A stretch of DNA of 64,000 nt from Methanolinea sp. (GCA_018262855.1 JADFDO010000002.1:187107-251106); one strand, 5' to 3'. Positions 28,108 through 32,889 are shown, counted from the first letter of the stretch. The notes: generated by a model not told the origin, from the letters alone. Program-made: numbers and translations.

Positions 28108-29640
28108 TCACACGACCCGGACCGCCGCCCCGCTGTTCCGGGCGGACGTAATAAGGGTGGTGCCCCCTCCCGACTCCTCCATGAACTTCCTTGCTGCCTG
28201 CTCGATTCCTGTCATCCCGGTGTCCCCGACCGCGTACACGGTGGGGCCGAACGACGAGAGGCCGGCACCGGCAGCCCCCGATTCCCGGAGCACCTCGAGA
28301 AGATCGGACACCTGCGGAGGCTGGAGACCCAGTTCAACCTTCTTGAACCCCAGCCGCTGGACCGCGTTGATAGACGAGCCGAAGAGATCGAGATCGCGGG
28401 AGGCGATTCCCGGCAGCATCCGCATGAGCACCTCGTGGCAGAGCTCCCGCACCTCATCGAGCGGGACCGGGCAGTGAGCACGGAAGATATCCGTCTCGAT
28501 CTTCCCGCTCGCACCGGCAGGAACTTCCGGGATCGCGAGGAGGATGCGCCAGTCGGAAGGGAAATCATGGCGGGCGATCACGGGCGGGGGGCTGACACCC
28601 TGCGAGGCTCCGGACGGGCGGAAATCTGTCTTCTCTCCTCCCGGACCGAACCGGTGCCCGCCGTCAACGAGGAATCCCCCATACTCGAAGGCGGCCGTCC
28701 CGATCCCCGACGTCCCGCCACGGCCGACGAGCCGGGCGAGTTCCTTTACCGGCAGGGTGCGGCCATGGAGTTCGCTCAGGGCCCGGGCGACGGCGAGACC
28801 GAGCTGCGAGCCGCTCCCGAGCCCTGCATGGGACGGGTACGATTTGCGAACCGTGATCGCCACGCTTCCTCCTGCCCCGAGTTTCTGCAGCACATCCTGC
28901 GCAACGCTACGGATCCGCTCCCGGAGGGCAGGGTCGCCGCCGTTGACCGAGAGGGTGGGGGAGAGCTCGGCCTCCAGCAGGATGCCGGGTTCATCGAGCG
29001 TGATGCCGATTCCGCCGTCGACCCGACCGGAACCTCCATGCATGTCGATCAGGGTCACATGGACCCGCGATGGCGTCCGGACGATGACCCGGCGTGTATC
29101 GAGGAAACGGTTGTAGGGAAACTGCTCCTCAATAAAGATGAGCGGTTTTTCGGCGTGGATGATCCGGTACTGCCGGGAGAGGACGGGCTCATTTCTGCAG
29201 ATCCCAAAGACCCTGCCCATCTCATCGGTAGCAGGCCCAACACGGGCAGAGAGGATCTCCCGCCGGGCTTCGATATGGTGTTGCGAGATGATCCTCCCGA
29301 TGGGGATATCGGCCTTCATGAGGTCATCCTTAAAAGCCGGCGAGAGCCGGTTGATCGGAGTATGAGATATGGCATAGATCAGCACTTCGCCACTCTCTTC
29401 GATTCCTATCTCCACGATCCGGAAGTTGACCAATTCTCCTTCCGCGATATCCAGGGTCTCCGCAGTCTCCCGCTCGGCAGGGATGACCTTCTGGACAAGG
29501 GTCCTGATCACCACGCTCTTCCCGGTGATCGATTCGAGGATCTGGGTGACCGATCCGTCGGTGCCGAGCAGGAATTTCTGGACCGGCGAGATCCTTCCTA
29601 CCTGCACCTCCAGATCCCGGATTGCCTTTGCAATATCCAT
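28108..29640 (-). CDS. Fusion protein: chorismate-lyase-like (DUF98/UbiC fold) N-domain + beta-RFAP-synthase-like GHMP-kinase-fold C-domain
   Basis: N-domain: KFLLGTDGSVTQILESITGKSV...LIYAISHTPINRL...IPIGRII. C-domain: RVHVTLIDMHGGSGRVDGGIGITLDEPG and SHAGLGSGSQLGLAVARAL (GHMP motif II as in RFAP synthases), GAGLSSFGPTVYAV. ATG 29640 is preferred over the listed 29736. Confidence 0.75.
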   Translation of the reverse strand: MDIAKAIRDLEVQVGRISPVQKFLLGTDGSVTQILESITGKSVVIRTLVQKVIPAERETAETLDIAEGELVNFRIVEIGIEESGEVLIYAISHTPINRLSPAFKDDLMKADIPIGRIISQHHIEARREILSARVGPATDEMGRVFGICRNEPVLSRQYRIIHAEKPLIFIEEQFPYNRFLDTRRVIVRTPSRVHVTLIDMHGGSGRVDGGIGITLDEPGILLEAELSPTLSVNGGDPALRERIRSVAQDVLQKLGAGGSVAITVRKSYPSHAGLGSGSQLGLAVARALSELHGRTLPVKELARLVGRGGTSGIGTAAFEYGGFLVDGGHRFGPGGEKTDFRPSGASQGVSPPPVIARHDFPSDWRILLAIPEVPAGASGKIETDIFRAHCPVPLDEVRELCHEVLMRMLPGIASRDLDLFGSSINAVQRLGFKKVELGLQPPQVSDLLEVLRESGAAGAGLSSFGPTVYAVGDTGMTGIEQAARKFMEESGGGTTLITSARNSGAAVRVV

Positions 29641-29835
29641 CAAGACACCCTTCTCGCAGGAATGATATGAATGCTGCGATACGAATGCCGCGAAGAGGAT
29701 TTTCCAGGTCCTGGTTCGGGGGGATACTGGAATCATTTTTTGTGAGATCCCGGATTTTGTGCACCCTTCCCCGGCAGCACAACATATTAAATACGCCGGA
29801 TTATGAACTGTCCATTATCCACAAGGGTGATTCAG

Positions 29836-31689
29836 ATGGTACCAGATCCGCATGAGAAGGACAAGGTGGTCTTTGCAGCCACGATGGCCTCAACCTTTGA
29901 ACCTGATTCGATGACGAACGACAAGATCGAAGCCGCGACCAGGGGACATGGCGCCCTCGTCATCCCGGTCTTTGCGGCTGCCAATTCCATCGCCGAAGAT
30001 CTCTTCTGCCCCATCACGGGCCCGGAGATGAGCCTGATGGGGCGGATGACGGTCATAGACGCGTCCGTCGGAGAACTGCCCCTCGATGTGGTGATCCAGA
30101 AATCGGTGCGGGCTGCGATGAGCGCCGGGGCCGCGCCCGAGAATGCCGCACTCATTGTCGCATCCCTCGCCTATTTCTCGGGGTCCTGTGCACGGTCGGG
30201 TGTCCCGCTCGGTAACAGGAAACTCGGCGCTATTGCCCGGATGCATGCAGGCGCACCCCGGACAAGCGCGATTGCGCTGGTCACCGGCAAGTCCACCCAC
30301 CGGATCCAGTCGTTCCCGGCATACCTTGCGATCTACGAAGCGATCATGGACAAGAAACTCACGAAGGTGGACGGCTCCATGCTCCCCCCGTTCATCTCCG
30401 GCGGGGCAATCTATGGCCACTCTGCGCTTGGCGAGGACTATAACATCCCTGAACTGGCGTACAATGCCGCACATACCGGCACGCTCGCCATGATGAACAG
30501 TATGGCAGGCACAGGGGTCACCCCTCTCGCACTCTGGCCGGCCCTTATCGGCGCAGCGGTCACGATGGAGATTGTGCACCCGGACGCTCTTTTAGGCGAG
30601 GAGTATGGAAAGTTCGGAAGGGTCGATTCATCGTACCTCGCAGGGAAAGGTGCTCGCGACGCTGCGAAGTTGCCGGAGAAGCTTCACATTCGGGGAACCC
30701 ACGAGGAGTACGACACCGCCAAGGTCATCGGCGAGTTCGGGCTTATCCTCAAGGATATCGGCGGCCCTTCGGTGATCGGGTCCATGGCCCTCTCCGAGAT
30801 CTTCGCGGCCTTTGAAGAAGCCCCGATGATCGGGGCGGGCTTCTCGGGAGGCCCGGTCAACCCGCCGCTCGGCCACCTCGAAGGCGACTGCGTTCCGGCA
30901 TTGCGCCTCCTGATGAAGCACCACGGCGACATCTTCGCGGTCGCCGAGGTGATCCGGGACTACAAGATGAACTCCTTCATCGACCCCGAGATGGCCCTCT
31001 GCGGCCTGAACACCATCTCGCGAAAGGCGGAGCAGGTGACACGAGGGAAGATCACGCGGGCCTGCATCCTTGCATCTGAAGGCGTGCGTGACAGGGCCAT
31101 ATATCGCCGGGCCGCCCACACCTACGACATCATCACGGGCGGGAAAACTGTTGCAGACGCGACCCGCACGCTCGATGAGGAACGCAAGAAGTACGTGGAG
31201 CGGCGGGGCTCGGCGGTCCTGTCCGCATTTACCGGAAAGAAGATCGATCTCAAGTTCACTTCGATCAAGCCTCATGGACGGCGCACGGACAAGTTCACGG
31301 AACGCTACTGGGGTTTTGACTCGAACGTCTCCTACGATGTCACGATTGACGGGAAGACGCTTCATGTCGAGAACCTGAGCGGAAAGGAGGTTCCCGACTT
31401 TGCCCTGAAGGGAAAGAACCGCGATAACCCGGACTGGCCGGTCGCACTCTTCTGCGGCGCAGTCCTTACGCAGGAGCTCCAGTACATCGGCCATACCATC
31501 ATCAACATCACGGTCCCTGCTGCAGTCGGGGCGATCCTGGGAATGGATGCAGACAAAGCAGCAGATAAGGCTGAAGACGGGGCATTCCTGACCCGGGCGA
31601 TCCCGGGCGCTGGCGAAAAGGCAAAGGATGTTGCAAAACTCGCACAGCGGGTCTACGCAAAGATCAACGAACCGTTCCCGCCGCAGTAA
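29836..31689 (+). CDS. Conserved-looking soluble protein of unknown function (617 aa), translationally coupled to larC
   Basis: Long ORF with a balanced composition and AGGGTGA RBS 5 nt before ATG 29836 (listed start 29803). TAA 31687-31689 is immediately followed by the larC ATG at 31690. I recognise no catalytic motif. Confidence 0.7.
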   Translation: MVPDPHEKDKVVFAATMASTFEPDSMTNDKIEAATRGHGALVIPVFAAANSIAEDLFCPITGPEMSLMGRMTVIDASVGELPLDVVIQKSVRAAMSAGAAPENAALIVASLAYFSGSCARSGVPLGNRKLGAIARMHAGAPRTSAIALVTGKSTHRIQSFPAYLAIYEAIMDKKLTKVDGSMLPPFISGGAIYGHSALGEDYNIPELAYNAAHTGTLAMMNSMAGTGVTPLALWPALIGAAVTMEIVHPDALLGEEYGKFGRVDSSYLAGKGARDAAKLPEKLHIRGTHEEYDTAKVIGEFGLILKDIGGPSVIGSMALSEIFAAFEEAPMIGAGFSGGPVNPPLGHLEGDCVPALRLLMKHHGDIFAVAEVIRDYKMNSFIDPEMALCGLNTISRKAEQVTRGKITRACILASEGVRDRAIYRRAAHTYDIITGGKTVADATRTLDEERKKYVERRGSAVLSAFTGKKIDLKFTSIKPHGRRTDKFTERYWGFDSNVSYDVTIDGKTLHVENLSGKEVPDFALKGKNRDNPDWPVALFCGAVLTQELQYIGHTIINITVPAAVGAILGMDADKAADKAEDGAFLTRAIPGAGEKAKDVAKLAQRVYAKINEPFPPQ

Positions 31690-32889
31690 ATGAAGGCGCT
31701 CCTCATCGATCCAAGGACCGGGGGTATTGCAGGGGACATGCTCTGTGCGGCTCTCTGCGATCTCACCGGTTCAGTGGAACCCCTTCACACCGTTGCCGAC
31801 GCAATAAAGAGGCTTTCCCGCTGCTCAGCCTTCGAGATCTCGGTTGGACGGACGGGAACACCATGCAGTGCCGCGTACGTCTCGGTGAATGTCGAGGAAG
31901 AGAACGGGCCCGGCACTGATATCGCCCGCGATATGGACGAGGTTCTTACCACCATCGGACTCCCGTCGCCCGCGGCGGTCATGGCACGTGTGATCCTTGA
32001 CGATCTCCTCTCGGTCAAGGCCAGGTTTCACCCCGAGATCGCACCGGGCCAGACCTTCGCGTCGGTCGATACGATCTTCGATATCCTCGGTCCCCTTGCG
32101 CTCCTTGAGGATGCCGGCCTCTCCGGGTGCCCCGTCTATACCACCCCGCCCGCACTCGGCGGGGGAGTGATCCATACGCCCGGTGGCGAGGTCGGTGGGC
32201 CCGCCCCGGCATCCCTTGAGATCTGCGCTCGCCACCGGATGCCGGTCTCCGAGAGCCCTCTCTTACGAGAACTGACGACCCCGACCGGTGCGGCCCTGCT
32301 CGCGAACCTCGCCCGCGTGGTGACATTGTTCCCTGCCATGACTCCGCTCCGGACAGGGTATGGTGCGGGTTCGAAGGATCGAGGATCCGAGACGAGCATT
32401 CTCCGGGTTGTCGAGGGGGAGATTGATGACCTGACCGAAGAGCGGATCGTGATCCTCGAGACAAACCTCGACGACGTGGACGGTGAGACGATCGGGTTTA
32501 CCAGGGAGAGACTCTTTGCGGCCGGGGCGGTGGATGTTTTCGTCACGCCAGCGTCAGGGAAGAAGAACCGACCTGTCCAGGTACTCTCCGTGATTACCTC
32601 GCGAGAGGACTATCTCCCGCTTGTCAAACTCCTGATGGACGAGACCGGGACGCTTGGCGTCCGGATACGGGAGGAGCCCCGCCTGGTCGCCGACAGGGTA
32701 AAAGAACAGATCAGCGTCATGGTCAAGAATCAGCCGTTTACAGTGCGCATCAAAATATCCAGGGTGGGCGGAAAGGTCATTGCGGTCAAACCCGAGTACG
32801 AGGACTTGAAACAGATTGCGCTGGCCCTGGGAATTCCCTTGCGGTATGTCACACGGGAAGTGTACCGGCAGCTGCCGTTCAATCCCTGA
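31690..32889 (+). CDS. larC: LarC-family nickel insertion protein (DUF111)
   Basis: MKALLIDPRTGGIAGDMLCAALCDL N-terminus, ETNLDD, DETGTLGVRI. 399 aa, typical of the LarC/DUF111 family. Confidence 0.85.
   Translation: MKALLIDPRTGGIAGDMLCAALCDLTGSVEPLHTVADAIKRLSRCSAFEISVGRTGTPCSAAYVSVNVEEENGPGTDIARDMDEVLTTIGLPSPAAVMARVILDDLLSVKARFHPEIAPGQTFASVDTIFDILGPLALLEDAGLSGCPVYTTPPALGGGVIHTPGGEVGGPAPASLEICARHRMPVSESPLLRELTTPTGAALLANLARVVTLFPAMTPLRTGYGAGSKDRGSETSILRVVEGEIDDLTEERIVILETNLDDVDGETIGFTRERLFAAGAVDVFVTPASGKKNRPVQVLSVITSREDYLPLVKLLMDETGTLGVRIREEPRLVADRVKEQISVMVKNQPFTVRIKISRVGGKVIAVKPEYEDLKQIALALGIPLRYVTREVYRQLPFNP

Follow-up and report, generated by a model that had tools for sequence, protein, structure and literature searches.

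A conserved DUF98-MptG fusion in Methanolinea and related archaea points to a possible source of the aromatic ring of methanopterin

Methanogenesis cannot proceed without methanopterin, and the question raised by the locus described here is which protein supplies the aromatic ring from which the aryl-ribitol side chain of this cofactor is built. Interest in the pathway is also practical, as work on beta-ribofuranosylaminobenzene 5'-phosphate (RFA-P, or RFAP) synthase has considered the enzyme as a target for inhibitors of methane formation (PMC6787355). We analyzed a window of 64,000 nucleotides from Methanolinea sp. (GCA_018262855.1, JADFDO010000002.1:187107-251106), the window being this whole stretch, with positions counted from its first letter. 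A single open reading frame (ORF) at 28108..29640 on the minus strand joins an N-terminal DUF98 domain, a member of the chorismate pyruvate-lyase family, to a C-terminal RFA-P synthase domain, MptG. Our best reading, to which we assign a probability of roughly 0.55, is that the product is a bifunctional enzyme predicted to convert chorismate to 4-hydroxybenzoate and the latter to an aryl-ribotide. The lyase activity proposed for the N-terminal domain, which we favor by a little, draws on homology at the level of the family, on the conservation of candidate catalytic residues and on genomic associations of three independent kinds. Judged from these sequence comparisons, the fusion points to a possible, though unproven, source of the methanopterin ring.

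The fused frame opens with an ATG at 29640, closes with a stop codon at 28108-28110 and encodes 510 amino acids (ORF list and translation). A second in-frame ATG lies 96 nt upstream at 29736 and would add 32 residues, giving the 542-residue frame on which the Pfam and NCBIfam domain scores of the fused protein were computed. The methionine at 29640 is the start matched by orthologues, which are mostly 510-511 residues long and whose alignment begins there, and a deposited Methanoregulaceae protein of 510 residues is 99% identical to the fused protein. An earlier note, made from the DNA alone, had described one ORF carrying both domains and had quoted three signature motifs; matches to PF01947 and NF040726 do lie in a single frame, and the motifs occur in the translation at residues 24-36 (LLGTDGSVTQILE), 202-215 (GGSGRVDGGIGITL) and 270-283 (SHAGLGSGSQLGLA). 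The objection that the halves might be two separate genes can be set aside, because many independent assemblies, some of them complete single-contig genomes, preserve the single frame uninterrupted by stops. A full-length AlphaFold2 (AF2) model of the protein (predicted local distance difference test score, pLDDT, 91.6; predicted template-modeling score, pTM, 0.89) presents two domains with a very short linker between them and a short helix of about 17 residues ahead of the DUF98 domain. Across orthologues the two halves evolve at the same rate, with a mean pairwise identity of 55.2% for the N-terminal and 55.4% for the C-terminal half and 19% invariant positions in each. The source genome (2.29 Mb, 99% complete) has a chorismate synthase, and its only PF01947 match and its only MptG above the cutoff are both the fused ORF.

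The C-terminal half (residues 183-510; 28111..29094, minus strand) is assigned to the GHMP-fold beta-RFAP/beta-ribofuranosylhydroxybenzene 5'-phosphate (beta-RFH-P) synthases, MptG, by a family model, by the structures of ForT and by its place in a tree. It matches the equivalog model NF040726 (BetaRFA-P_synth) with an E value of 5.2e-118 and 393.9-395.6 bits against a cutoff of 328, over model positions 2-326/327, and Pfam recognizes GHMP_kinases_N (E 6.5e-13) and GHMP_kinases_C (E 2.7e-08) in it. The MptG family (MJ1427, MTH0830, AF2089; EC 2.4.2.54), likewise of GHMP fold, thus finds a full-length match in the C-terminal 328 residues, whereas the characterized enzymes are stand-alone proteins of about 310-330 residues and the fused protein adds a 182-residue N-terminal DUF98 domain. 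Both glycine-rich phosphate loops of MptG are present, as is an aspartate/arginine pair like that of MTH0830. The first loop, HAGLGSGSQ (residues 271-279; 28804..28830, minus strand), has H271, G273, L274, G275 and G277 invariant and is of a type described previously (PMC6787355); the second glycine-rich loop, GRGGTSGIG (residues 306-314; 28699..28725, minus strand), is invariant from R307 to G314 in 32 fused proteins, and both loops are conserved across the alignment of 32 orthologues. Within the segment LIDMHGGSGRVD (residues 197-208; 29017..29052, minus strand), R206 and D208 are invariant and D199 is at least 90% conserved. The spacing of seven residues between D199 and R206 equals that between D19 and R26 of MTH0830, a correspondence judged by this spacing, and mutagenesis has established that D19 and R26 matter in the Methanothermobacter thermautotrophicus enzyme (PMC6787355). 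The nearest solved structures are the ForT/RFAP-synthase entries 8AP0 and 6YQQ, found by sequence at E 1.3e-40 and by Foldseek at E 1e-28 with a template-modeling (TM) score of 0.87. ForT, the formycin C-glycoside synthase (PDB 6YQQ, 8AOZ, 8AP0; 31% identity to the C-terminal domain), also C-ribosylates an aromatic acid with phosphoribosyl pyrophosphate (PRPP), but it is bacterial, acts on another aromatic substrate in another pathway and has no N-terminal domain.

The phylogeny agrees with this assignment. In a quick maximum-likelihood tree of 110 GHMP-domain rows, built without the Methanocaldococcus jannaschii anchor sequence, a long branch with a Shimodaira-Hasegawa-like approximate likelihood ratio test (SH-aLRT) value of 100 splits a canonical MptG clade from divergent paralogues. 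Inside the canonical clade, the fused proteins of Methanomicrobiales (SH-aLRT 88) group with those of Methanotrichaceae (98); a divergent fused pair, one of which is from Methanospirillum, and the Methanolliviera protein are placed elsewhere in the tree. The RFAP-synthase-type C-terminal part that the earlier note had proposed is accordingly a canonical MptG by equivalog cutoff, fold and clade; family membership is solid, and MptG activity is predicted from it. On the related matter of a stand-alone mptG, a separate canonical copy is absent from the genome, and a divergent RFAP-synthase-like GHMP paralogue of 359 residues, outside the window, lies 55 kb upstream of the fused gene (G000 C22:159559-160635; locus L002:1474-2553; minus strand).

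The N-terminal half (residues 1-182; 29095..29640, minus strand) is a DUF98, or Rv2949c-like, domain, as judged from PF01947 and PDB entry 2NWI. PF01947 (formerly DUF98) matches at E 6.1e-26 and 91.6 bits against a threshold of 22, covering profile positions 1-143 of 149 and residues 57-208 of the 542-residue frame, which places the domain in the Pfam family of Rv2949c and of the cyanobacterial PF01947 enzymes. The AF2 model of the domain (pLDDT 94.5) aligns by structure with AF1396 of Archaeoglobus fulgidus (PDB 2NWI) at a Z score of 23.6 and a root-mean-square deviation (rmsd) of 1.4 Å over 159 residues, and the two are 48% identical (sequence E 8.5e-41); AF1396 is a free-standing DUF98 gene without an assigned function, whereas the domain described here is part of a fusion. 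Polar positions are strongly constrained: G29, S30, T32, T47, Q50, N72, R74, S92, D111, E124, R126, R127, R156, Y158 and E172 are invariant across 29 fused and free DUF98 sequences. Three of these, G29, S30 and T32, fall in the motif TDGSVT (residues 27-32; 29545..29562, minus strand), in which T27 and D28 are at least 90% conserved in the alignments of fused and free DUF98. Comparison with Escherichia coli UbiC by hhalign pairs the invariant Arg74 (29419..29421, minus strand) with Arg76, the invariant Glu172 (29125..29127, minus strand) with Glu155, and DGSVT with EDSMT, the segment that holds Met34. The probability of this alignment is low (16-28%), because the UbiC template is a single sequence, and two runs differ by one residue as to whether Glu172 or Glu171 faces Glu155. 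Arg76 and Glu155 are residues that we take to be catalytic in UbiC. The UbiC structures 1G81, 1FW9 and 1G1B align with the domain over 148 residues at Z 14.1-14.4 and rmsd 2.6-2.9, so the fold is common to the two, yet sequence identity to UbiC (PDB 1G1B, 1FW9) is only 18%. UbiC, Rv2949c and the cyanobacterial lyases also feed quinone or glycolipid synthesis and not a C-ribosyltransferase.

Whether the two domains belong together in function can be judged from their distribution, which we followed by a six-frame search of 121 Methanomicrobiales genomes and in a separate sample of 251 genomes across the phylum. The fused frame occurs in about 84 of the 121, in all six families, and is split or at a contig end in six of these. 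Frames of more than 500 residues with both domains were likewise found in all nine Methanotrichaceae and both Candidatus Methanolliviera genomes of the larger sample. A search with the whole protein gave no fewer than 1489 relatives; both domains are present in every one of the 120 best. Exact look-ups returned the fusion from Methanothrix thermoacetophila (ABK14723.1, WP_011696118.1), M. harundinacea and Ca. Methanolliviera hydrocarbonicum, under the names 'beta-RFAP synthase' or 'DUF98 domain-containing protein'. It is not unique to this window: many genomes have it and the databases already contain it, though it is uncharacterized as a fusion. Unfused MptG was found in six Methanocorpusculum genomes of the order, at only 41-44% identity to the fused C-terminal part. 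In Methanocorpusculum (genome G024, locus L105) this canonical MptG comes from another clade and DUF98 is absent, a pattern that suggests replacement of the enzyme rather than loss of a domain.

The link between DUF98 and MptG that the earlier note had read from the fusion extends beyond it, to gene adjacency and to co-occurrence. In an uncultured family of Halobacteriota (f10), mptG is followed directly by a DUF98 gene in four of five genomes, the two genes overlapping by 7 nt at one extreme and standing 67 nt apart at the other; the order is opposite to that in the fusion, and in the tree the MptG of this family groups with those of Methanocella and Methanosarcinaceae and not with the fused clade. 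All 133 DUF98-positive genomes among the 251 sampled also have a match to the MptG family. Some 60 haloarchaea-like genomes have no DUF98, apart from one weak match of 43 bits. In these families MptG is represented only by a distant homologue (E about 1e-50), which is thought not to be isofunctional (PMC8305020). DUF98 also occurs as a free protein of 156-190 residues in Methanobacteriaceae, Geoglobus, Methanoperedens, Methanolobus, Methanosarcinaceae and about half of the sampled Archaeoglobaceae, and M. jannaschii is reported to have a free copy in the control panel. A small DUF5611 (PF18446) gene stands directly upstream of free DUF98 in Methanoperedens (L013) and Methanolobus (L015). Two other MptG fusions were seen among 50% cluster representatives (P0343/P0426): one, from a Promethearchaeota metagenome-assembled genome, bears a dihydroneopterin aldolase domain (PF04038) at the C terminus of MptG, and the other joins DUF447 to MptG. 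PF04038 corresponds to MptD, an enzyme of the pterin branch, and MptG would therefore tend to fuse with partners from its own pathway.

In the bifunctional mechanism that we propose, the fused enzyme would cover the first steps in the formation of the tetrahydromethanopterin aryl-ribitol side chain. The DUF98 domain would cleave chorismate to pyruvate and 4-hydroxybenzoate, and the MptG domain would join the aromatic acid to PRPP, with loss of CO2 and pyrophosphate, to give a C-ribosylated aryl 5'-phosphate. The fusion would tether the two activities at a ratio of 1:1 in one compact two-domain protein, which might also channel the aromatic acid from one domain to the other, as the earlier note had supposed. 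Free DUF98 proteins of 160-190 residues, such as those of Methanosarcinaceae, about half of Archaeoglobaceae and M. jannaschii, may serve the same role in trans. Support from the substrate side is that MJ1427 reportedly accepts 4-hydroxybenzoate (work by White, 2011). To our knowledge, the archaea in question make no ubiquinone, and MptG would therefore be the only consumer of 4-hydroxybenzoate that we can name there. The PurB step following the 4-hydroxybenzoate route has been cited in the literature (PMC3261824). Taken together, the conserved fusion, the independent adjacency and the occurrence of DUF98 only with MptG make this family a concrete candidate for the supplier of the aromatic ring, and one that already has a solved structure without a function (2NWI).

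Several observations weigh against this proposal, and each is considered here beside the alternative that it favors. The first concerns the fold. Non-catalytic UTRA effector domains (DasR, YvoA, PhnF) align with the N-terminal domain at Z 14-17.5, so that it is at least as near to the effector domains of GntR/HutC regulators as to UbiC at a Z of about 14; the UbiC fold is present but is common to UTRA domains, and fold searches do not separate a lyase from a UTRA domain. The Pfam UTRA model PF07702 also passes its threshold on this half, with 26.4 bits against 23.8. Against the cyanobacterial chorismate lyase equivalog NF037993, the only validated-lyase model of the family, the domain scores 34.4 bits where the cutoff is 175. 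Archaeal DUF98 is, from these scores, a subfamily separate from the validated lyase equivalogs, and of the DUF98/UbiC-type signature put forward in the earlier note, family and fold stand while a lyase match at equivalog level does not. Our main rival explanation, which we regard as unlikely, is therefore that the domain is a non-catalytic ligand-binding unit: a UTRA-like or structural module that would regulate or stabilize MptG, conceivably through feedback by an aromatic acid or a pterin, with the aryl substrate coming from elsewhere. It gains from the fold and UTRA scores and from the genetics of Methanococcus maripaludis, which, as far as the citing papers given below relate them, oppose chorismate as the precursor. 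It is opposed by the fit of PF01947, about 20 orders of magnitude better than that of UTRA, by the invariant Arg/Glu pair that aligns, at the hhalign probability of 16-28%, with the catalytic pair of UbiC, and by a degree of conservation equal to that of the catalytic half. In GntR/HutC regulators the UTRA domain is coupled to a winged-helix DNA-binding domain; neither the domain search nor the AF2 model revealed one in the fused protein, where it is MptG that follows DUF98. DUF98 proteins of 160-190 residues free of any output domain are moreover common in archaea, which is unusual for a sensor.

A second set of objections concerns the substrate. Porat et al. 2006, in the part of that work cited in PMC4162585 and PMC1971073, trace the aminobenzoate unit of M. 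maripaludis to dehydroquinate and not to chorismate, and a 2014 census placed chorismate lyase among activities found only in Bacteria (PMC4164138). In the literature, with subscription journals thinly covered, we found neither an assay nor an assigned function for archaeal DUF98, and likewise no paper tying DUF98 or chorismate lyase to methanopterin. These points could be accommodated if the N-terminal domain were a lyase acting on another substrate, converting 4-amino-4-deoxychorismate to 4-aminobenzoate or using some other enolpyruvyl or dehydroquinate-derived intermediate, and still feeding MptG. Such a domain would retain all of the comparative-genomic links between DUF98 and MptG, would be reconciled with the non-chorismate origin cited for M. 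maripaludis, and would suit a subfamily that is far from the validated lyase equivalogs. We nevertheless consider it quite improbable, as our analysis identified no candidate alternative substrate and no aminodeoxychorismate synthase is evident in the ten genomes tested, each of which has a single TrpE/PabB homologue that scores below the cutoff for PabB. PabB was also tried as a discriminator between fusion-bearing and fusion-lacking genomes and was rejected, as all ten were alike in this respect. We know of no pab genes in archaea.

Chorismate cleavage by DUF98 also has to be squared with the uneven distribution of the domain. DUF98 is absent from MptG-bearing Methanocellaceae (none of ten genomes), from family f17 (none of four) and from about half of the Archaeoglobaceae, which means that the aryl acid must have at least one further source. 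In the contexts examined in Methanobacteriaceae, Geoglobus, Methanoperedens and Methanolobus, mptG is not adjacent to the free DUF98 gene. Within Methanomicrobiales, a search with two hidden Markov models in six frames found no DUF98 and no canonical or group-2/3 MptG in 29-31 of the 121 genomes; of these, 18 reach a completeness of at least 97%, and several consist of one contig. In 29 of the 121 the weak match to the paralogue stands alone, and two genomes returned no match at all. The divergent paralogue is the only MptG-like gene in the roughly 25% of Methanomicrobiales genomes without canonical MptG. As roughly a quarter of the order has no fused gene, that gene is therefore dispensable in part of it. 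An enzyme of the MJ0301 type, which consumes RFA-P, is kept in all four MptG-lacking genomes tested.

These observations raise the possibility that the fused protein is an accessory enzyme whose aryl-ribotide is not destined for housekeeping methanopterin, the GHMP paralogue found throughout the order being the housekeeping RFA-P synthase. The paralogue scores 87-91 bits on the MptG model, bears the name 'GHMP kinase' at NCBI and has a conserved N-terminal extension, 'IRGGDLDLVEY'. It occurs in all 48 sampled Methanomicrobiales, at 58-83% identity, and in three of nine Methanotrichaceae, and in no other sampled genome. Its ubiquity in the order, the many fairly complete genomes without the fusion or a canonical MptG, and the retention of the RFA-P consumer in the four such genomes tested would all fit a housekeeping role. 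The paralogue keeps the first phosphate loop, but it has no residue aligned with D208 and lacks the R307-S311 loop and a segment of about 21 residues, H329-S343, that holds K337, all of which are invariant in canonical enzymes. The fused C-terminal domain, in contrast, is above the equivalog cutoff and inside the canonical clade, and genomes of the Methanothrix thermoacetophila type yielded no member of the family other than the fusion. We accordingly judge an accessory role for the fused protein very improbable. The paralogue itself could be another RFA-P synthase or a protein of unrelated function. The absence of canonical MptG from many Methanomicrobiales shows that understanding of the pathway's first committed step is still incomplete for this order. 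Returning to a fused enzyme that makes and then ribosylates 4-hydroxybenzoate, a wider scenario can be drawn in which archaeal DUF98 would be the missing supplier of the aromatic ring, three orders would have fused it to MptG, and the paralogue would offer a second route to RFA-P that let about a quarter of Methanomicrobiales discard the canonical enzyme; we put this forward only tentatively and think it rather doubtful.

The fused gene is flanked in the window by a hybrid histidine kinase, by a 628-residue protein without a family and by LarC, a nickel-pincer-cofactor protein. The latter two genes occupy 29803-32889 on the plus strand, with the stop of the 628-residue ORF at 31689 and the start of LarC at 31690, and the fused gene runs divergently from this pair; the 628-residue ORF has no Pfam or NCBIfam match. 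These neighbors are not conserved beside the fused gene in Methanoculleus-like genomes, in families f3 and f2 or in Methanothrix, and the idea of a pathway joining LarC to the aryl-ribotide therefore found no support. Elsewhere in the window, at 23573-24673 on the minus strand, lies a gene for the mercury-methylation corrinoid protein HgcA, which matches NF040863 with 441 bits against a cutoff of 275.

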